Shown here: positions 3,610-19,809 of the stretch, piece by piece | Position numbering within the stretch: position 1 is the first letter of the stretch | How the letters are laid out: every line of letters starts with the position of its first letter | NCBI GenBank assembly: GCA_963705255.1 | Contig: OY970061.1 | Location: forward strand, 832,001 to 896,000 | DNA from: an uncultured Methanoregulaceae archaeon | Lineage (GTDB): Archaea > Halobacteriota > Methanomicrobia > Methanomicrobiales > Methanospirillaceae | DNA length: 64,000 nt | Direction: 5' to 3' | Made by a program: the position numbers and the translations under genes | The notes under the pieces: generated by a model | The model's input: the letters and a program-made list of their open reading frames with translations, nothing else | Told to the model about the DNA's origin: nothing | The model's database searches: none

Positions 3610-4089
3610 TTAATAACATATCAATGGGATTATCAAAAATCCAAAAATTAACCCGATTAACCAGCCAATTGCCCCGAAAGAAGGAATATTTTGCATTATC
3701 GGCTTTATACTACCACCGGTAAAATATCTTGGATAAAATTCTTTATTCTCTGGGTTGGTACGAAAATCATTATCAATTTTAAGTTCATTCTCCAAATTTA
3801 CAATTAATTTATCATAAAATCTCTGATATGAGAAGATTCGTTTTACAATAATATACCAGATTATTGATAAGATTACACCAAATAATGGAACGATTGTCCA
3901 TTTGATTTGAGTGAGAAAACAATCATTGCTTTGAAAAAGGGCAATTAATAATATAGCATTAGCTGCCCAAAATGCACTAAATACCATCCAAAATAAATTA
4001 TCATAATGCATTTTCATATTATAATAAATTTTCAATAGCTCAAAAAAATCTTGTAGATTGCCTTGTTGATTATTTATCTCCGTATCCAT
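3610..4089 (-). CDS. Small 3-TM membrane protein (RipA/SLATT-like effector fold, tentative)
   Basis: HYDNLFW..F..ANAILL, TM, helical linker, C-terminal TM. Confidence 0.5.
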   Translation of the reverse strand: MDTEINNQQGNLQDFFELLKIYYNMKMHYDNLFWMVFSAFWAANAILLIALFQSNDCFLTQIKWTIVPLFGVILSIIWYIIVKRIFSYQRFYDKLIVNLENELKIDNDFRTNPENKEFYPRYFTGGSIKPIMQNIPSFGAIGWLIGLIFGFLIIPLICY

Positions 4090-8807: not shown

Positions 8808-9800
8808 GTGACTATGAGCAAAGCAGAATCTGATTTTAGTTTAATCGACACGACACAAACCAGGTTCTGTGACGGAGATATAGTAGTCCTTCGCACCAAG
8901 GAAGCATCCTTGGAAAAAAAGTTCGAAGCAAAAGTCAATGCTTGGAATCGTAGACCCGAAATTCTGAATACGGTCCATGAATTTTTCGAAGGGGATGCAA
9001 GGCTTATGGAAGGACTCGATTCTAACAAAAAAATTCACTTGGTTGTGACATCTCCGCCTTACTGGAACCTTAAAAAATATAGCGATAGCGGGGACGGTCT
9101 CCAACTAGGCCACATCGAATCTCGCGAGGAATTTCTTCACGAGCTTGGTAAAGTGTGGAAAAATTGTTTTGATCGACTTGTTCCGGGGGGACGAATGTGC
9201 GTCGTAGTTGGAGATGTATGCCGCTCACGCAAAAAGCATGGACGACACCTTGTTGATCCTCTGCACGCATACATTCAGGTCCAATGTCAAGAGATAGGAT
9301 TTGATCCACTTTCCCCAATAATCTGGAATAAAATTTCAAATGTGGTCACAGAAATGGAAGGAAATGGATCAACATTTCTCGGTAAACCATACGAGCCAAA
9401 TGGAATCGTAAAAAATGATATAGAATTTATTTTGCTTTTCCGGAAACCGGGCGGCTATCGTCATCCATCGCAGGATCAAAGGGATCTGAGTATGATTGAC
9501 CGGGAAGATCACGAGAAATGGTTCCAGCAGATCTGGACTGATATTCCGGGAGAGATCCAGAGGGCGCACCCGGCACCATTTCCTGTAGAGGTAGCCCGGA
9601 GATTGATCGGCATGTTCTCTTTTGTCGGGGATGTCGTTCTCGATCCTTTTGCCGGGACCGGGAATACAATCCAGGTCGCGATTAAAATGTACCGGAATTC
9701 AATCGGCATCGAATTAGAACCATCATACATGAGATATGCAGAAAAGCGCCTCAACGAAACACATACTCCGGTAATATTCCACTATAACGAAAGCAGGTAA
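8808..9800 (+). CDS. Beta-class amino (N4-C/N6-A) DNA methyltransferase
   Basis: Motif IV VTSPPYW precedes HPAPFP and motif I VLDPFAGTG. Confidence 0.93.
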   Translation: MTMSKAESDFSLIDTTQTRFCDGDIVVLRTKEASLEKKFEAKVNAWNRRPEILNTVHEFFEGDARLMEGLDSNKKIHLVVTSPPYWNLKKYSDSGDGLQLGHIESREEFLHELGKVWKNCFDRLVPGGRMCVVVGDVCRSRKKHGRHLVDPLHAYIQVQCQEIGFDPLSPIIWNKISNVVTEMEGNGSTFLGKPYEPNGIVKNDIEFILLFRKPGGYRHPSQDQRDLSMIDREDHEKWFQQIWTDIPGEIQRAHPAPFPVEVARRLIGMFSFVGDVVLDPFAGTGNTIQVAIKMYRNSIGIELEPSYMRYAEKRLNETHTPVIFHYNESR

Positions 9801-9801
9801 C

Positions 9802-10524
9802 ATGGCACCAAATCCCGTCAGCTTTTTACAACACCTTCAAACATTAGGCTATCATCCGAGATCGAATAAACATTCAAACGCTTTGGCAGAGACGATCATG
9901 GGCGACTTACTGAAATATTGCCCGAAGATTGCTTCAAAGGCATCCGCCGGTCAGTTAGTGTACGATCTGAATTTCAACATCACCGTTGGGACGGCAGACT
10001 GGAATATCGATCTGGTTATCGGCAGTGCTCCTCTTGGTATGAAGGCTCCAGAACCGGATATTCCCATTGTGAAAACTCCTCCTGCCCTTGTTCAGATAGC
10101 GATCGAGATCAAGTCTGTAATGACGGAGCATCGCAAGGCGGTGAAGAACCGGAAGAGGGATTTCGATGCACACCACGCCCACGTGCACCAGTATAATCCC
10201 CATTCCATCGCGGGCGGGATTCTTGTCTTGAATGCCTCGCCGAAATTCAAATCGCCGCTTCGGGATACTGAAACGATCCATAAGAACCCGGACAAACTTG
10301 TCGGTCACTGCCTCGACGAGTTCCGTGGCATCTCCTCAAGCGGCGGAACTATCGGGGTCGCGGGTCTCGATGCGAAGGGCGTAATCGTGGTGAATTGCGA
10401 TAATATTGTGCCGCCAAGAACCTGTTACGTCACAACAAAACCGGCGCCTGTTGTCGGCGATCCGATTCACTATGATGCATTTATTCAGAGTATCTGCGAT
10501 CTGTATACGGCCCGGTTTCCTTAA
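9802..10524 (+). CDS. Putative PD-(D/E)xK type II restriction endonuclease
   Basis: NIDLVIG...IAIEIKS motif; starts 1 nt after the MTase stop. Confidence 0.65.
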   Translation: MAPNPVSFLQHLQTLGYHPRSNKHSNALAETIMGDLLKYCPKIASKASAGQLVYDLNFNITVGTADWNIDLVIGSAPLGMKAPEPDIPIVKTPPALVQIAIEIKSVMTEHRKAVKNRKRDFDAHHAHVHQYNPHSIAGGILVLNASPKFKSPLRDTETIHKNPDKLVGHCLDEFRGISSSGGTIGVAGLDAKGVIVVNCDNIVPPRTCYVTTKPAPVVGDPIHYDAFIQSICDLYTARFP

Positions 10525-10733
10525 TGGGCGAATCTGGATTTTTTACTTATTATCGAGTATAATATCCTTAATCCCATAATTATCAAATCTTTTTTGAAGA
10601 ATGTCACGAGAATTAAAGCAATAATCCCCAAAAGCATCCATGAGACAAGCATAATGTTCAACAACGCCTGAAATCCACCGAAGGCCAAAATAAGACCAAC
10701 GTAGAAAAGAAGTTGTTTTAAATCTGAGTTCAT
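10521..10733 (-). CDS. Small 2-TM membrane protein
   Basis: GAGGTGA SD upstream of the ATG; hydrophobic 70 aa. Confidence 0.55.
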   Translation of the reverse strand: MNSDLKQLLFYVGLILAFGGFQALLNIMLVSWMLLGIIALILVTFFKKDLIIMGLRILYSIISKKSRFAH

Positions 10734-11132
10734 AGGAGATCACCTCAATCAATTTTTTTCCAGTCACAACTTTTTTTATCGAGAGGGCACGGTGGCAATC
10801 TGTCCGTATCCTGATCGAGATAGATAATTTCTCCTGTTTCAACCGATTCATAGTGTCCTTTTCCCGGTTTTGTTCCGCACTTGAATGACATTTATTTCCA
10901 CCTTGAGGTCCCAGTGAGAACCTCAGATAATTATCCTATTATGCAGCGAACAAAAGAGTATCAGCAAGTGTTGTGAAAGTGTTACAGTTAGATATTTTTT
11001 ATTTTAGCGAGAATTCTAAATTCGAATGTATTCAGTTAAAACCAGATGTTAAAAATATTGGAAATTCTGACGTGAAAAAACGTCATGAGAATATTGAAGT
11101 AGTTCTCTTATCCATATTAAATAATAAATTCT

Positions 11133-12197
11133 ATGATTTTTATGACGGACATTCCAGAATTAATTGAGGTAATCAATGAAATGGATGCCGATGCTGATAC
11201 AATAGAAAATGAGATGAGCCATCTCTTTTCATCATTAGCCATTGTAGAAAAACCTAATCTTTCTGAAAAAAATGATGAAAGTATTCAAAAAATTCTTTTT
11301 CGTCCATCACTACCCACATATGTCCCTACTCGCGATAAATGGGAGGAACCGAATAAAGAACTATCAGAATATCATCGATATATAATCAAACACTATGAAA
11401 AATGGTATAATCAGGCATTATTCCTTATTCGCGAATATAACAAATCTTCAGAAGTAGAATTCATTGAATTGCATAACGGTAAAAGAGAAAGTTATACCGG
11501 TCCAGACACTTACCGAGACTCACCAGTTCCGGTAACAAAAATGATTACGGTGTATTATGGAATTTCTGAATTATTACAATTTAATGAAAAAATCAAAGGT
11601 ACTTATGAACCTCAAAAATTAATCAAGACTACTACAAATTTATTTTCAAAACAACGCGCATCACTTCTTGCATTACCGGATATTGTAAAAATGTCAAAGA
11701 AATCAAATTCTGTGATTCCCAATTCAATGCCCAATAAGAAGGAAGTATTCATTGTTCATGGCCATGATGAAGAATTAAAACAATCAGTCGCTAGATTTAT
11801 TGAAAAAATTGATTTGAAACCGATAATTTTACATGAACAACCAAATCAAAACAGACATTTGCTCCAAAAATTAAAAGATTATAGCGATGTCGGATACGCA
11901 ATCGTCTTGCTTACTCCGGACGATATGGGAATATCTAAACAGGATTTTGATGAAAAAAATATTGTTCTAAATTTTCAATCAAGGGCCCGTCAAAATGTGA
12001 TTTTAGAATTAGGTTTCTTTTTGGGTCTACTGAAAGAACAGCGGATTTGTGCTATCAATAAAGGTGTTAAAGATATTCCGTCAGATTATCACGGAATTAC
12101 ATTTATTGAATATGATAAAGAAGGAGCGTGGAAAATGAAAATCGCAAAAGAATTAGATTCTGTAGGTTATGTAATAGATTTTAAAAATGTTATATAA
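11133..12197 (+). CDS. TIR-domain (Cap12/PF10137-like) protein with an unknown N-terminal domain
   Basis: VFIVHGHDE, YAIVLLTPDD, RARQNVILELGFF, PSDYHGI. Confidence 0.9.
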   Translation: MIFMTDIPELIEVINEMDADADTIENEMSHLFSSLAIVEKPNLSEKNDESIQKILFRPSLPTYVPTRDKWEEPNKELSEYHRYIIKHYEKWYNQALFLIREYNKSSEVEFIELHNGKRESYTGPDTYRDSPVPVTKMITVYYGISELLQFNEKIKGTYEPQKLIKTTTNLFSKQRASLLALPDIVKMSKKSNSVIPNSMPNKKEVFIVHGHDEELKQSVARFIEKIDLKPIILHEQPNQNRHLLQKLKDYSDVGYAIVLLTPDDMGISKQDFDEKNIVLNFQSRARQNVILELGFFLGLLKEQRICAINKGVKDIPSDYHGITFIEYDKEGAWKMKIAKELDSVGYVIDFKNVI

Positions 12198-12287
12198 TAG
12201 AAAATTGCATTTTCCTCCTACATTCGCCCATTTCATATTCGCATTTCTCCTTGGTAAGCGCACCGTGCTACTCATTAGCACACACGC

Positions 12288-12295
12288 TTAAATAC
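12288..12295 (+). promoter_or_regulatory. Putative archaeal TATA box of the aromatic operon leader
   Basis: cTTAAATA about 25 nt upstream of ATG 12317, ahead of the leader ORF. Confidence 0.45.
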
Positions 12296-12341
12296 AAACA
12301 CACCAAACAATAAACCATGCAGAACGAGTGCCACCGCATTC

Positions 12342-12503
12342 ATGAGGGTTTTTTTGCCCGTGAATGTCTTTATCTCCGTTAGAACACCCGCCCGCTGCAT
12401 CAGTGAGATCGTTTCTGAACTTGTCGTGAATGCCGGTACGTCCGCGTATCGCTTCTTCGGCTTTTTTGGCTTTTATTACCGGTTTTATTACTGGTATCAG
12501 TAA
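12342..12503 (+). CDS. Putative aromatic-amino-acid leader (attenuator) peptide, 53 aa
   Basis: MRVFLPVNVFISVRTPARCISEIVSELVVNAGTSAYRFFGFFGFYYRFYYWYQ*; 6 Phe, 6 Tyr and 1 Trp in the last 18 codons; ends 58 nt before the first operon gene. Confidence 0.75.
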   Translation: MRVFLPVNVFISVRTPARCISEIVSELVVNAGTSAYRFFGFFGFYYRFYYWYQ

Positions 12504-12561
12504 ACCCTCTGGTTCCGCATAAAAAATCCGTGTGTGAATGCAGGGGGAGGTTGTTGTTGTT

Positions 12562-13353
12562 ATGAGAGGAAAGGAAATTCGTCTGGAAAGAATCATGAAC
12601 CGGAACACGAGGAAGACGGTCATCGTGCCGATGGACCACGGGGTCACGAATGGGCCGATCCCGGGGCTGATCGACCTGTCGCAGGCCGTGAACCTGGTGG
12701 CCGAGGGCGGGGCGAACGCGGTGATCGGGCACATGGGGCTCGCCCTCCACGGCCACCGGCAGAGCGGGCGGGACGTGGGGCTGATCCTCCACCTGTCCGC
12801 GAGCACGTCGGTAGGGCCGGACCCGAACAACAAGGTCCTCGTGAACTCGGTGACGAACGCCCTGAAGATGGGGGCGGACGCGGTATCGATGCACGTGAAC
12901 ATCGGGGCGGAGTCGGAGGCGGCGATGCTCCAGGACCTCGGGAAGGTCGCGGTGGAATGCATGGAGTGGGGGATGCCGCTCCTCGCCATGATGTACCCGA
13001 GGGGGAAGAAGATCGCGAAGGATAACGACGTGGAGATGGTCAAGCTCGCCGCCCGGGTGGCAGCGGAGCTCGGCGCCGACATCGTCAAGACGGTGTACAC
13101 CGGCGACCCGGAGTCCTTCCGGGAGGTGACCCGGGGGTGCCCGGTGCCGGTGGTCGTTGCCGGAGGTTCAAAGACCGATGACCGCACAACCCTTGAGCTG
13201 ATAGAAGGGGCGATGGCGGGAGGGGCGGCCGGGATCTCCATCGGCCGGAACGCCTTCCAGCACAAGCACCCGGCGAAGTTCGTCCGGGCAGCGGCCTGTA
13301 TCGTACACAAGAACATGAGCGTTGACGAAGCATTGAAAATTCTGAAGGTGTGA
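12562..13353 (+). CDS. aroA': 2-amino-3,7-dideoxy-D-threo-hept-6-ulosonate (ADH) synthase, class I aldolase, paralog 1
   Basis: VPMDHG, GADIVKT (Schiff-base Lys), GRNAFQ; GGAGGT SD before ATG 12562. Confidence 0.88.
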
Positions 13354-14141
13354 AGATGATTGGAAAGGAGATCAGGATCGAACGGATCATGAACCGGAAC
13401 ACAGGAAGGTCGGTCATCGTGCCGATGGACCACGGGTTCTCGATGGGACAGATTGAAGGACTGCTGGACATGACGAAGGTCATCTCGGACGTGAGCGAAG
13501 GGGGCGCGAACGCCATCGTGCTCCACAAGGGGCTCGTCAAGCGCGGCCACCGGAAGCACGGCCGCGACATCGGCCTCATCATCCACCTCTCGGGGTCCAC
13601 CTCGCTCAACCCGGACCCGAACGACAAGGTGCAGGTCTGCACCGTGGAGGAGGCGATAGCCCTCGGCGCGGACGCGGTCTCGATCCACATCAACCTCGGC
13701 TCGCCCAACGAGTCCAAGATGCTGGAGATCGGCGCCGGCGTGGCAAAGGACTGCATGCGCTGGGGGATGCCGCTCCTGACCATGTGCTACCCGCGGGGCA
13801 AGGGGATCGACTCCTTCTCCCCGCAGTCGGTGGGCCACGCGGTCCGGGTCGCCGAGGAGCTCGGCGCGGACATGATCAAGACCAACTACCCGGGAGATGC
13901 AGAATCCTTCCGGAAGATCGTGAAGGCCTGCTCGGTTCCCGTCTTCATTGCCGGCGGCGAGAAGACCGGCGACCTCGAGTCCCTGAAGATCATCCGCGAC
14001 TCGGTGAAGGTCGGCGGCGCAGGGGTCTGCGTGGGGAGGAACTCCTTCCAGCGCGAGGACACCACGGCGTTTGTCAAAGCCCTCTGTGCGGTCGTCCACG
14101 ACAAAACGGACCCGGAGAAGGCGCTGGGGAAGAAGAGATGA
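13350..14141 (+). CDS. ADH synthase/DhnA-type aldolase, paralog 2
   Basis: VPMDHG, GADMIKT, GRNSFQ; tandem paralog of the preceding gene. Confidence 0.85.
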
Positions 14142-14323
14142 TACGGTCGATCACAAAGCTCGATGCCGGCACATCCATGAAGACGAAAAAGTGGGTCTGT
14201 GGAAAAACCAATAAAACCCTCAAGTGGGATTGCGATGAAGCCACGGGTGCTCGCCGCCTCGTCGGGGCTCGCCCCGTGGAGCATGGCCGCAGAAGGGACC
14301 CGTGGGAAAAAAAATTTAAAAAT

Positions 14324-14490
14324 GGGGGTCAAGGGGGTTTGCCCCCTTGGGCTGCCTCGAAGAACCTTTTGGGTTCTTCTCCTTCTTCACGGTCCTTATG
14401 GACCGTTCAGACTCCCCCTCTGGGGACCGACCGCAGGGAGGTCGCAGAAGAACGCATGAGCGTTCTTCGAGGAGAGAGGGGGTCACCCTC
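14324..14490 (+). repeat. Intergenic repeat family A with two inserted hairpin mini-elements
   Basis: Matches the uninterrupted copy at 37584-37647, with inserts at 14359-14414 and 14427-14473. Confidence 0.8.
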
Positions 14491-14553
14491 ACAAATTCCA
14501 CTGAACGTTTCTGAAAAGACAGAGATGAAACAACAGCAAAACAGGGGGCTGCA

Positions 14554-15540
14554 ATGAAGCAGTTCTGGGTCGACATCCGCCCCTGGAACAAGGAGGTCGC
14601 GACCACGGCCATCGAGAGCGGTGCCGACGCGCTGGTCGTCGACCGGGCGGAGGACGTGCGGCGGCTCGGGAGGATCACGACCATCGCCCCCGACGGGGAC
14701 CTGAAGCCCGGCTCCGATATCGCGGAGTGCACCATTACCGACAAGGAGAGTGAGAACGCCGCCGCCCGGATCGGGAAGGGGAAGAAGGTGATCGTCACCA
14801 CGTCCGACTGGACCGTCATCCCGCTCGAGAACCTCGTCGCCCAGTCCGACCAGATCATCGCGACGGTAAAGAGCGTAAAGGAGGCGGAACTCGCCCTGCA
14901 CGTCCTTGAGAAAGGGGTGTACGGCATCCTCCTGAAGACATCCGATCCCGCCGTCGTACGATCGGTGGCGGCCCTCGTGAAGGGGGCGAGCGCCACGGTC
15001 GGCCTCGTCCCGTTCACGGTCACGAAGATCCGGCAGGTCGGCATGGGCGACCGCGTCTGCGTGGACACCTGCTCCATGCTCTCCGACGGGGAAGGCATGC
15101 TGATGGGGAACACCTCGTCGGCGATGCTCCTCGTGCACGCCGAGACGCTCGAGAACCCGTACGTGGCCCCCCGCCCGTTCCGGGTGAACGCCGGGGCGGT
15201 GCACGCCTACATCCTGATGCCCGACGGCAAGACCGCGTACCTCTCCGACCTGGCGATTGGCGGGCAGGTCCTCGTCTCCGACGCGAAGGGCTCCGCCCAC
15301 ACGGCGGTCATCGGGCGGACCAAGATAGAGCGCCGCCCCCTCCTCCTCGTAGAGGCCGAAGCAGGAACAGCAAAGGTGAGCCTGATTCTCCAGAACGCCG
15401 AGACCATCCGCCTCGTCGGCGAGGACGGGAAGGCGATCTCGGTCGTGAACCTCGCAACCGGCGATACGATACTCGGCTGCGTGCTCGAGGGCGGCAGGCA
15501 TTTCGGGATGGCCGTCAAAGAGACTATCCGCGAGAAATGA
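14554..15540 (+). CDS. aroB': 3-dehydroquinate synthase II
   Basis: WTVIPLENL, GDRVCVDTC, RPFRVNAG, LQNAETIRL, GRHFG. Confidence 0.95.
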   Translation: MKQFWVDIRPWNKEVATTAIESGADALVVDRAEDVRRLGRITTIAPDGDLKPGSDIAECTITDKESENAAARIGKGKKVIVTTSDWTVIPLENLVAQSDQIIATVKSVKEAELALHVLEKGVYGILLKTSDPAVVRSVAALVKGASATVGLVPFTVTKIRQVGMGDRVCVDTCSMLSDGEGMLMGNTSSAMLLVHAETLENPYVAPRPFRVNAGAVHAYILMPDGKTAYLSDLAIGGQVLVSDAKGSAHTAVIGRTKIERRPLLLVEAEAGTAKVSLILQNAETIRLVGEDGKAISVVNLATGDTILGCVLEGGRHFGMAVKETIREK

Positions 15541-18426: not shown

Positions 18427-19809
18427 TTGGTACTGACCGGGTTCCGGGGCACCGGAAAGACCGAGATCGGGAAGATCCTCGCCCTGCAGAACACGGTGCA
18501 GTTTTTCGACACGGACTCCCTCATCGAGCTTGCGACCGGCCGCTCCATCCCGGACATCTTCCACGAGGACGGCGAGGAACGCTTCCGGAACATCGAGCGC
18601 GAGGTCATCGCCACCCTCCCGCCCGCGGATGCCGTGGTCAGTACCGGTGGCGGGGCGGTCGTGGACCCGGCCAACATGGAACGCCTCCGGCGGGACAGCA
18701 TCATGGTCCTCCTCTTTGCGGATATCGACACCATCGAGAAGAGGCTCGAAAACGCCCCCCGCCCGCCGCTCACCGGCCTCCCCCTGAGGGAAGAGATCGC
18801 CGAGATAATGGACCGGCGCAGGCACCGGTATTACGCCTCTGCCGACCTCTGCATCGATACCAGCGAGACCACGCCGGCCGATGCTGCCGGAACGATCAGC
18901 GCCCTCCTGCGGGGCGGTGTCCCGGCGGCGGCTTCCCGGAAGGAGGCCCTTGCTTTTTTCCGGGGAGGACGGATCCCGGGGCCGTCGATGCGCCGGCTCG
19001 AACAGGTCCTGAACGACCCGCCGGACGACCCCCTGACACGGATACTCGGGGTTGCCGGGTATCCCTGCGCCCACAGCAGGGGGCCGTACCTCTTCAACGC
19101 CCTCTTCAGCCGGTTCGGGCTCAACTGCCAGTACACATGGTTCGAGGACCCGGATATCGGAAAGATAATGCGGCTCGCGCGGGATCTCGATGTGAAAGGG
19201 CTCTCGGTGACCATCCCGTTCAAGCAGGACGTGATGAACCACCTCGACGAGATCGACGAACATGCCGCACGGCCGATCGGCGCGGTGAACACGGTGGTCT
19301 TTGCCTGCGGGTCGTCTGTCGGGCACAACACCGACTGGCTCGGCATCCGGAAGCCGCTGGTCTCCCTGAAAGGGTCAAGGGCCGTCCTGCTCGGTGCGGG
19401 CGGGGCCGCCGCGGCCGCGGCCTATGCACTCGTGGACCTCGGGATGGACACAACCGTCCTGAACCGTACCCCGCAGAAGGCGAAAGATCTTGCAGAACGG
19501 GCCGGATGCCGCTGGGCCGGGTGGGACTCGTTCGACGACCTGCGGCCTGACCTTGTCGTGAACGCGACCCCGCTGGGGATGGCGCCGGACTTAAGAAGCC
19601 CGCTGAACGAGGACCAGCTCTACCCGGAACTGACGGTCTTTGACCTGGTCTATACCCCGCCGCTCACGCCGCTCCTCGAAGCGGCACAGCGGAAGGGCTG
19701 CAGGACCATCAGCGGCACCGAGATGTTTATCGAACAGGCGAGAGAGCAGTTCTACCTCTTCTTCGGGATCGATGTCCCGTCGGAGACCATCAGGAAGTAT
19801 CTCACATGA
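18427..19809 (+). CDS. aroK-aroE: Fused P-loop shikimate kinase - shikimate dehydrogenase
   Basis: GFRGTGKT, GEERFR, STGGG and RPPL (AroK); HSRGP, VTIPFK, GAVNT, HNTD, GAGGAA and NATPLG (AroE); the true start may be GTG 18417 with a 1-nt indel. Confidence 0.92.
   Translation: MVLTGFRGTGKTEIGKILALQNTVQFFDTDSLIELATGRSIPDIFHEDGEERFRNIEREVIATLPPADAVVSTGGGAVVDPANMERLRRDSIMVLLFADIDTIEKRLENAPRPPLTGLPLREEIAEIMDRRRHRYYASADLCIDTSETTPADAAGTISALLRGGVPAAASRKEALAFFRGGRIPGPSMRRLEQVLNDPPDDPLTRILGVAGYPCAHSRGPYLFNALFSRFGLNCQYTWFEDPDIGKIMRLARDLDVKGLSVTIPFKQDVMNHLDEIDEHAARPIGAVNTVVFACGSSVGHNTDWLGIRKPLVSLKGSRAVLLGAGGAAAAAAYALVDLGMDTTVLNRTPQKAKDLAERAGCRWAGWDSFDDLRPDLVVNATPLGMAPDLRSPLNEDQLYPELTVFDLVYTPPLTPLLEAAQRKGCRTISGTEMFIEQAREQFYLFFGIDVPSETIRKYLT

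Follow-up and report, generated by a model that had tools for sequence, protein, structure and literature searches.

The question raised by this locus is whether an archaeal operon for aromatic amino acid synthesis could be controlled by the translation of a short leader peptide. Ribosome-mediated attenuation is a textbook bacterial mechanism, and archaea couple transcription with translation; the apparent absence of attenuation from archaea is, to our knowledge, a long-standing gap. The locus lies in a stretch of 64,000 nucleotides (nt) from an uncultured Methanoregulaceae archaeon (contig OY970061.1 of GenBank assembly GCA_963705255.1, positions 832,001 to 896,000 of the forward strand), hereafter called the window. 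A first-pass annotation of the window had singled out a short open reading frame (ORF), here named F2, that ends in a run of Phe, Tyr and Trp codons just ahead of aroA′, the first gene of a shikimate/Phe/Tyr operon. From a comparison with the corresponding regions of related genomes, we consider it probable that the leader is a cis-acting leader-peptide attenuator of this operon, found across the order Methanomicrobiales and most likely acting on translation rather than by transcription termination.

The aromatic-tailed frame and its conservation

The argument starts from F2 and the signals on either side of it:

12287–12294, + strand: TATA-like box CTTAAATA
12342–12503, + strand: F2, the aromatic-tailed ORF, 53 codons and a stop, translated as MRVFLPVNVFISVRTPARCISEIVSELVVNAGTSAYRFFGFFGFYYRFYYWYQ followed by the stop
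12447–12500, + strand: aromatic tail, the last 18 sense codons of F2, 13 of them aromatic (6 Phe, 6 Tyr, 1 Trp)
12546–12551, + strand: Shine-Dalgarno sequence GGAGGT of aroA′, ahead of ATG 12562
12562–13353, + strand: aroA′ (ADH synthase, DeoC-family aldolase; Pfam PF01791, E = 3e-64), first gene of the operon

The translation of F2 agrees with the first-pass description of an ORF with 13 aromatic codons among its last 18 and two aromatic residues in its first 35 codons, and the ORF does lie, as described, between a TATA-like box and the Shine-Dalgarno sequence of the operon. Such a composition is rare in this genome. Among all stop-to-stop frames of 8–110 codons in its 2.6 Mb, only 12 reach 8 aromatic residues in a stretch of 12, and F2, with 10 of 12, ranks first among the short frames. 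The true start of aroA′ is ATG 12562, since the N-terminal start is kept in all listed relatives' loci when the upstream regions are compared. The start of the longest ORF, ATG 12538, lies inside the hairpin that covers the Shine-Dalgarno sequence (see below) and is not conserved among relatives; an automatic annotation from 12538 would lengthen aroA′ by 8 codons too many.

Regions upstream of aroA′ were drawn from 151 genomes of the order, yielding 111 loci. Six were dropped, of which three duplicated other genomes, two duplicated the locus of the window and one measured just 46 nt, leaving 105 loci from six families. The relatives in the comparison carry the names Methanoregula, Methanoregulaceae, Methanolinea, Methanoculleus and Methanospirillaceae, which place the window in a Methanoregula-like member of Methanomicrobiales, the order assumed in the first-pass annotation. 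In 100 of the 105 regions we found a complete frame on the same strand whose end is rich in aromatic codons, and these frames were of two kinds. In 87 loci the leader has two frames, with an F2 made up of the motif C[VRK]V[NDS]VFSPV..FI, a variable middle and the aromatic tail, while 13 loci have a single-frame ORF with an equivalent tail. One further locus (L089) is truncated, and four, all from genus g20 (L082, L083, L084 and L088), have no leader within 450 nt upstream. Similarity between the window and its relatives sets in only at about position 12261; from there to aroA′, the leader DNA is 71–83% identical in 12 genomes of the same genus.

The 87 two-frame loci and one single-frame locus (L094) could be anchored on the motif, and the counts below refer to these 88 loci unless noted otherwise. 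Over the last 15 codons, a fraction of 0.53 is aromatic, compared to 0.06 (5.9%) in the middle of the peptide. Taken together, the 18-codon tails contain 752 aromatic codons out of 1584 (47.5%), divided into 383 Phe, 305 Tyr and 64 Trp. Phe and Tyr swap freely in the tail from locus to locus, and the middle of the peptide cannot be aligned between families. From the anchor to the aromatic tail, F2 is open over 39–74 codons. This openness exists by construction in such a count, so that the relevant comparison is with the neighbouring frames: over the same head-to-tail stretch these contain 154 and 97 stops, and they are stop-free in only 13 and 10 of the 88 loci, respectively. The tail codons also have a distinct usage, with 71% TTT for Phe and 85% TAT for Tyr, whereas the operon genes instead use 78% TTC and 67% TAC.

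The same signature was not seen beyond the order: 40 regions upstream of aroA′-like genes in 15 other families of the phylum contained no aromatic leader, and their best forward windows had 2–7 aromatic residues in 12, compared to 3–8 on the reverse strand. Within the order, the cluster of aromatic codons is kept across six families, together with its frame and its place beside the Shine-Dalgarno sequence; this is the kind of conservation for which the first-pass annotation had proposed to test. Sequence comparison thus establishes the ORF, its order-wide conservation and the position of its tail, as well as the promoter geometry and the hairpin described below, and it supports the core idea of a cis-acting leader peptide that would read the aromatic supply.

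Two overlapping frames and a conserved core

F2 is not alone in the leader. A second short frame precedes and overlaps it, and both small ORFs escape gene callers. The features that bear on the relationship between the two frames are the following:

12317–12382, + strand: ORF1, predicted leaderless, 21 codons (MQNECHRIHEGFFARECLYLR followed by the stop); F2 overlaps it, one base downstream (+1)
12334–12387, + strand: conserved core defined by alignment, 54 nt in 18-nt units (consensus GGTGAATGTTTTTTCGCC)
12349–12355, + strand: site 1, a T7 run read in ORF1 as the codons TTT_TTT (Phe-Phe), candidate +1 slippery site with Phe in the A site
12368–12373, + strand: site 2, ORF1 codons CTT_TAT (Leu-Tyr), candidate +1 site with Tyr in the A site
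12383–12400, + strand: C-rich segment AACACCCGCCCGCTGCAT, directly after the ORF1 stop, whose alternative pairing partners are the 5′ end and the Shine-Dalgarno region

The spacing of the promoter points to an mRNA that begins at ORF1. The best TATA-like octamer begins 30–35 nt 5′ of the ORF1 ATG in 84 of 87 loci. According to the available part of a study of mapped methanogen promoters (PMC2699501), these have an 8-nt TATA box at about −31 to −24. The spacing in the leader matches this geometry, and the mRNA is therefore predicted to be leaderless on ATG 12317, with the transcript probably starting at or beside this ATG. A literature search for transcription start maps from Methanomicrobiales found none. 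In the single-frame leaders, counted by eye on the sequences, the TATA-like box lies 31–33 nt 5′ of their ATG. The first-pass annotation had taken 12342 as the start of the leader; ATG 12317 is the likelier 5′ end and start, given the TATA spacing and the single-frame leaders that begin at the corresponding place.

ORF1 itself is well maintained. In 87 of the 88 loci its ATG precedes the anchor by a fixed distance of 13 or 31 nt, and in 79 its stop falls on one of two positions, 29–32 nt past the anchor. Most copies have 14–21 codons, with the consensus M[CQR]G[EG]C[FL]FA[GSR][ED][CRG][FL]Y.. before the stop. As stop codons, TAG (54 loci), TAA (18) and TGA (16) all occur, and the use of three different codons suggests selection on the stop as such, not on particular bases. 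Counts of synonymous and non-synonymous changes in the overlap failed to separate the frames (0.27 for ORF1, 0.24 for F2 and 0.17 for the third frame).

The overlap coincides with the core, the most conserved part of the leader (mean column identity 77%, with 13 invariant columns in an alignment of 82 distinct sequences). The core is made up of two units in most genera and of three in the window, where the first is degenerate. A covariance model of the core, R1, matched 109 of the 151 genomes of the order and, outside the order, only one of 126, weakly (E about 1e-3); the R1 matches that were compared sit 150–350 nt 5′ of the aroA′ match. In the genome of the window, a search with the core profile in nhmmer gave the aro leader as the sole copy, and a search for 14-mer and 18-mer motifs with up to two mismatches gave merely chance-like matches. 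A second R1 match was found in four genomes, all of them fragmented assemblies (70–260 contigs). One second, weaker core match (E = 6e-8) lies at positions 3616–3659 of contig C37 of genome G054, a separate contig of a fragmented genome.

Two places in the core have the makings of +1 slip sites. The pattern YTT_TTY is present at site 1 in all 88 loci, and YTT_TAY at site 2 in 87, the exception being the single-frame locus L094. In the core consensus, the sequence GGTGA is located 4 nt 5′ of each P-site codon. The A-site codons at both sites are ordinary Phe and Tyr codons, which would be slow only under starvation. The codon that would be read after a +1 shift at site 2 is a common one (ATC makes up 145 of 176 Ile codons), while at site 1 it is the common TCG in most relatives and the rare TTG in the window. 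Loss of a single T from the T7 run puts ORF1 and F2 into one frame, equivalent to a +1 shift by the ribosome. The first-pass annotation had the direction of this change reversed: an extra T in the run does not connect the frame of ATG 12317 with F2. Slippage of the transcribing polymerase on the T-run was considered as well and set aside, because a C interrupts the run (GTCTTTTC) in several loci of the same and neighbouring genera (e.g., L006, L012 and L032).

Relatives in which the two frames are naturally fused provide the main argument for such a shift. Seven genera (g7, g10, g14, g17, g20, g22 and g23) lack the core, and in these the aromatic leader is in frame from the TATA-proximal ATG, with an N-terminus of the ORF1 type (MCGEC.., MCDEC.., MRGEC.. 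or MQG..). In genus g22, the junction corresponds to the loss of one T at site 2, relative to genus g2. Core loss coincides with frame fusion in all 32 genera with data, of which 25 have the core and two frames and seven are coreless with one frame; in genus g29, neither aroA′ nor the core was found. This correspondence identifies the 5′ ATG as the likely ribosome entry point and ties the job of the core to the passage from ORF1 into F2, and the fused leaders make a starvation-sensed +1 frameshift a live possibility. We tentatively suggest that F2 may be entered by a "hungry codon" +1 shift from ORF1. In such a recoding switch, put forward here with the same reserve, ribosomes would load at the leaderless ATG 12317 and normally end at the ORF1 stop; when Phe-tRNA (site 1) or Tyr-tRNA (site 2) is scarce, the P-site tRNA on UUU or CUU would slip by +1, allowing the ribosome to skip the stop, read on to the tail in the +1 frame and be detained there beside the Shine-Dalgarno hairpin, and aroA′ would be switched on. 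The leader would then be a natural sensor of amino-acid supply that relies on such shifts, with the tail as a second stage of sensing. If so, and this part of the proposal is equally tentative, the switch would be ancestral to Methanomicrobiales and would have been hard-wired by one-base indels in at least seven genera.

Programmed +1 frameshifting, as in bacterial prfB, and "hungry codon" frameshifting are close known counterparts (reviews PMC5009743 and PMC2377451). The aro leader shares with these systems a short 0-frame ORF followed by a long +1 frame, both conserved, and natural relatives with fused frames. It also has a P-site UUU or CUU followed by U, on which re-pairing one base further would be possible, a Shine-Dalgarno-like GGUGA at 4 nt 5′ of the P-site codon as a possible stimulator, and an A-site codon that would be slow under the sensed condition. 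In the aro leader, however, decoding would be slow at a Phe or Tyr sense codon and not at a stop, there are two sites in tandem, and the product would be a regulatory leader peptide instead of a functional protein, in an archaeal setting. Should the frameshift prove true, it would represent a new principle for sensing amino-acid supply and a rare case of regulatory +1 recoding in archaea. In a review on archaeal recoding (PMC8211752), the terms "attenuat" and "leader peptide" do not occur.

Alternatively, ORF1 and F2 could be two independent small ORFs with no recoding. ORF1 would then be a separate leaderless upstream ORF that tunes or competes, F2 would start at ATG 12342 (mostly GTG in relatives), and the attenuator logic would be unchanged. 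We regard this as a possibility that falls short of being probable, about as likely as the +1 shift. The codon at the F2 start position is GTG in 71 loci and ATG in 17, and thus a potential start in 88 of 88; ATG is used in 17 of the 29 loci in which 25 nt separate the start from the 5′ end. Furthermore, AUGUG and GUGUG starts in E. coli are reported, in the part of PMC9841429 available, to permit initiation in overlapping frames. However, both the ORF1 codons GGT-GAA and the stem P2 described below also hold the GTG constant, so that this constancy is not specific evidence for a start. No clear Shine-Dalgarno sequence precedes 12342, and independent initiation leaves unexplained why the ORF1 stop is kept up by three different stop codons. 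The seven coreless genera, moreover, begin at the TATA-proximal ATG with an ORF1-type N-terminus and not at the GTG of the second frame.

The conservation of the core raises another alternative, namely that it chiefly provides a structured site, in RNA or DNA, for a regulator acting in trans, such as an aromatic-sensing protein or an uncharged tRNA that reads the Phe and Tyr codons in two U-rich loops, and that the frames are by-products. In favour of such a site, the core is far more conserved than its flanks (77% mean column identity, with the 13 invariant columns) and consists of two similar units, and some of its helices exceed expectation. The stem P2 (GGUGAA/UUCGCC) pairs in 89.8% of cells, compared to 35–77% with a slid partner. 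At the 5′ end, CTGCAT of the C-rich segment can pair with ATGCAG at 12317–12322, and RNAalifold, run on 23 genus-level sequences, pairs the 5′ ATGC with the GCAT of the same segment; this 5′-end helix, P1, was stronger than in shuffled sequences at p ≤ 0.05 in 27 of the 88 loci. On the other hand, P2 in its main register shows only one-sided changes and no two-sided compensatory change; 14 cells with a two-sided change were found in an alternative register, in the three-unit form. A third structure, P3, proposed from single examples, reached p ≤ 0.05 in 10 of 82 loci, compared to 4 in the control, and was not supported. A scan of 10500–13500 against Rfam 15 at E ≤ 10 returned six snoRNA, miRNA and lncRNA matches at chance level, far below the gathering scores, and no match that would identify the core. 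Apart from the four fragmented assemblies, the core is single-copy per genome and so does not mark a regulon, and its absence coincides exactly with the fusion of the frames, which indicates a role tied to the choice of frame. A trans-acting regulator as the main function of the core therefore appears improbable.

The hairpin at the Shine-Dalgarno sequence

The signal that the leader peptide would control is a hairpin between F2 and aroA′:

12505–12547, + strand: hairpin that begins 4 nt past the first base of the F2 stop, minimum free energy −18.7 kcal/mol; its outer stem CCCTCTG/CAGGGGG (12505–12511/12541–12547) overlaps the aroA′ Shine-Dalgarno sequence

For the comparison of hairpins, we used the 83 of the 88 loci in which the F2 stop lies within 95 nt of aroA′, leaving out five loci with longer spacers. 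In the minimum-energy fold, all 83 loci have a hairpin that begins 0–10 nt past the first stop-codon base; in 67 of them the distance is 3–8 nt. Its 3′ arm pairs at least two of the five bases of the Shine-Dalgarno core in 63. The arms vary between families while the pairing is kept: CCCTCTG/CAGGGGG in the window, and TCCCGG/CCGGGAGG, CCCCGC/GCGGGGAGG and CTCCTCTCA/TGAGGGGAGG elsewhere. Compared to dinucleotide shuffles, the hairpins are more stable by a mean z of −1.63, with 27 of the 83 below −2.

Other pairings were also considered. The first-pass annotation had suggested that the segment at 12383–12400 can pair imperfectly over the Shine-Dalgarno sequence, and by hand pairing, 15 of its 18 positions do match 12538–12555. 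A second set of pairings proposed there, between GCATTCA and three copies of GTGAATG, was not supported: GCATTCATG is located at 12336–12344 and GTGAATG at 12360, 12426 and 12534, as claimed, but GCATTCA occurs in the extra 18-nt unit of the 31-nt form only, which comprises 29 of the 88 loci. The RNAalifold consensus contained no alternative helix pair, and no mutually exclusive anti-terminator is conserved across families.

The effect of ribosomes on the hairpin was modelled by folding 43 leaders from 24 genera, with at most three per genus. In the free leader RNA, the Shine-Dalgarno core has an unpaired probability of 0.28, which increases to 0.51–0.53 once ribosomes cover all of the frame up to a point within 4 codons of the stop. 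The model supports the direction of the effect proposed here, with ribosomes favouring the open state, but its size is modest and a queue of ribosomes is needed to obtain it.

The leader could then operate as follows. The operon mRNA would begin at or beside ATG 12317, and ribosomes translating the leader would meet the C-terminal run of Phe, Tyr and Trp codons (12447–12500), mostly the rare TTT and TAT. This run ends 4 nt before the hairpin at 12505–12547, whose 3′ arm contains part of the aroA′ Shine-Dalgarno sequence. If charged tRNA for Phe, Tyr or Trp runs short, ribosomes would linger and queue up on the tail, the hairpin and upstream C-rich competitors such as 12383–12400 would be kept unpaired, and aroA′ would be translated. 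With an ample supply, ribosomes would clear the leader and the Shine-Dalgarno sequence would again be sequestered. Ribosomes would get into the aromatic frame either through the +1 shift from ORF1 or by initiating separately at ATG 12342. That the leader is translated, that the response runs in this direction and that the Shine-Dalgarno sequence becomes unmasked is what we infer.

Several observations weigh against this scheme. In the folding model, a single ribosome at the stop does little to open the Shine-Dalgarno core (unpaired probability 0.34, compared to 0.28 in the free RNA); because this effect is so small, the scheme has to invoke a ribosome queue. With the local hairpin alone, the core is still about 50% open in the model, and in 17 of the 83 loci, including those of genera g6 and g11, the hairpin pairs none of the core bases, the core having been picked crudely in this count. 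Slow codons in the tail could also cut the flow of ribosomes to the hairpin, and the preference for TTT and TAT could in part be explained by the AT-rich composition of intergenic DNA. ATG 12342 lacks a convincing Shine-Dalgarno sequence of its own and lies within ORF1. An exact look-up of the leader peptide in a collection of 15 billion proteins did not find it, and a look-up of sequencing runs containing the locus returned no RNA run and one soil run, at a share of 0.05.

The same elements could instead serve transcription attenuation, akin to that of the bacterial trp and phe operons, with the position of the ribosome deciding whether the polymerase stops at the U-tracts of the Phe codons or through FttA/aCPSF1 acting on naked RNA. 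Archaeal polymerases do stop at oligo-T and factor-dependent polarity occurs in archaea, and the tail in the window holds one T6 and two T4 runs. The first-pass annotation had likened the U-tracts of the Phe codons to terminators. In the window, however, no T-run occurs between the F2 stop and aroA′ (T-runs were looked at in the window only); the sequence after the hairpin is GGAGGTTGTTGTTGTT-ATG, and the 3′ arm of the hairpin is the Shine-Dalgarno sequence itself. We therefore read the hairpin as a sequestor of the Shine-Dalgarno sequence and not as a terminator. A stalled, uncoupled ribosome should furthermore raise factor-dependent termination, which has the wrong sign for a biosynthetic operon, and transcription attenuation is thus an unlikely explanation for the leader.

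That F2 is a self-standing small protein with an aromatic C-terminus, such as a membrane peptide, is very improbable in spite of its order-wide frame and conserved N-terminal motif VFSPVNVFI, since the tail keeps its aromatic composition only, and neither sequence nor length, the middle is unalignable between families, the motif coincides with the nucleotide-level core and with ORF1, the ORF always abuts the aroA′ ribosome-binding site, no Pfam family was matched by the peptide of either ORF1 or F2, and no aromatic leader was seen ahead of aroA′ in the 40 loci from 15 other families of the phylum.

Related systems and the surroundings of the locus

The enterobacterial leaders pheL (of pheL-pheA), trpL and hisL are leader-peptide transcription attenuators. 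In common with these, the aro leader has a short upstream ORF rich in codons for the product, an RNA structure directly after it, and a logic in which the speed of the ribosome would report on charged tRNA. It differs from them in that the window has no intrinsic terminator (a hairpin with a U-tract), the output element being the Shine-Dalgarno sequence, and in that the promoter belongs to the archaeal TATA/TFB type, with a predicted leaderless mRNA.

A closer counterpart comes from mycobacteria, in which leaderless polycysteine short ORFs control cysteine operons and stalled ribosomes block structures that sequester the ribosome-binding site, as described in the available part of Canestrari et al. 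(bioRxiv 10.1101/834739). With Ms5788A of that system, as far as it is presented there, the aro leader shares a predicted-leaderless short ORF that stands as first cistron in a biosynthetic operon, a tract of end-product codons, a structure that would sequester the following gene's ribosome-binding site, and, as proposed, translational control without a terminator. It is unlike Ms5788A in being archaeal, in having one leader for three amino acids, in being known from sequence alone, and in having its sensing tract at the very C-terminus, adjoining the hairpin. In addition, the start codon of the archaeal leader opens another short frame, which overlaps the sensing frame in the 54-nt core. The same source, in the part available, also describes ermCL/ermC and cat, in which a leader ribosome arrested by a drug remodels a hairpin and frees the downstream Shine-Dalgarno sequence; there the stall depends on the antibiotic and the nascent peptide, whereas here a shortage of charged tRNA at a run of codons would cause it. 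A search of open-access full text found no published archaeal leader-peptide attenuator.

The locus is well suited to experiment, considering its order-wide conservation, the clear output element and the cultured species of Methanoregula, Methanospirillum and Methanoculleus, and the two-frame and fused-frame leaders would be natural controls for one another.

Control by DNA-binding proteins is another way of regulating such operons. In the TrpY-type control of archaeal trp operons, a protein binds DNA at the promoter, and no leader peptide is involved. TrpY-type control and the aro leader both belong to archaeal aromatic-pathway operons, and the aro promoter has a palindrome of its own:

12265–12281, no strand assigned: palindrome GTGCTA-N5-TAGCAC adjoining the TATA box, candidate operator

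The pattern GCTA-N5-TAGC is found 49–52 nt 5′ of the ORF1 ATG in 25 of 25 loci from the same genus and, at other positions near the promoter, in genera g2, g7, g17, g18 and g22; it is present in 1.9% of shuffled sequences. The palindrome is probably an operator for a putative transcription factor, constituting a second, separate layer of control, and TrpY-type control may coexist with the leader as such a layer.

We also looked for similar leaders elsewhere in the genome. The first-pass annotation had raised the prospect of an analogous leader ahead of the trp operon; no Trp-rich frame was found upstream of trpE. A scan of all short frames in the genome for runs of a single amino acid yielded no leader that was convincing without its context. 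A second scan, for a TATA-like box followed after 29–35 nt by an ATG, with a short ORF, an open +1 frame and lastly a long ORF, gave 136 candidates, among which the aro leader alone has a cognate-looking tail. The AT-rich region 5′ of trpE (about 2187250–2187350, minus strand, outside the window) contains two TGTACA boxes and TTTGTAAACA; the boxes are reminiscent of TrpY-type operators. The match to Trp synthase alpha (trpA, 2180807–2181555, minus strand, outside the window) falls into two overlapping pieces in different frames, which could reflect a frameshift or an assembly error.

The operon comprises, in order, aroA′, a second DeoC-family aldolase, DHQ synthase II, tyrA, pheA, EPSP synthase, a shikimate kinase-dehydrogenase fusion and chorismate synthase. 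The fusion is a single ORF of 460 amino acids at 18427–19809 with a shikimate kinase domain (PF01202) and shikimate dehydrogenase domains (PF08501, PF01488 and PF18317). Between the second aldolase and DHQ synthase II is a gap of about 410 nt (14142–14553), where the ORFs 14199–14459 and 13784–14557 had no Pfam match; the gap might conceal a missing step of the pathway, such as a chorismate mutase or a dehydroquinase. A scan of the window for tRNA genes found none.

Directly 5′ of the leader is an island of low GC content (28–39%) at 8808–12197, with a gene for a DNA methylase at 8808–9800 (PF01555) and, at 11133–12197, one for a protein of 354 amino acids with a CAP12/Pycsar-type TIR domain (PF10137); the stretch with the latter gene has 28–34% GC. 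This is probably an inserted defence island. Finally, contigs filed under Spirochaetia and Bacteroidales (L205 and L217) encode an aroA′ that is 84–88% identical to the aroA′ protein of the window, and their placement is probably a binning error in those assemblies.

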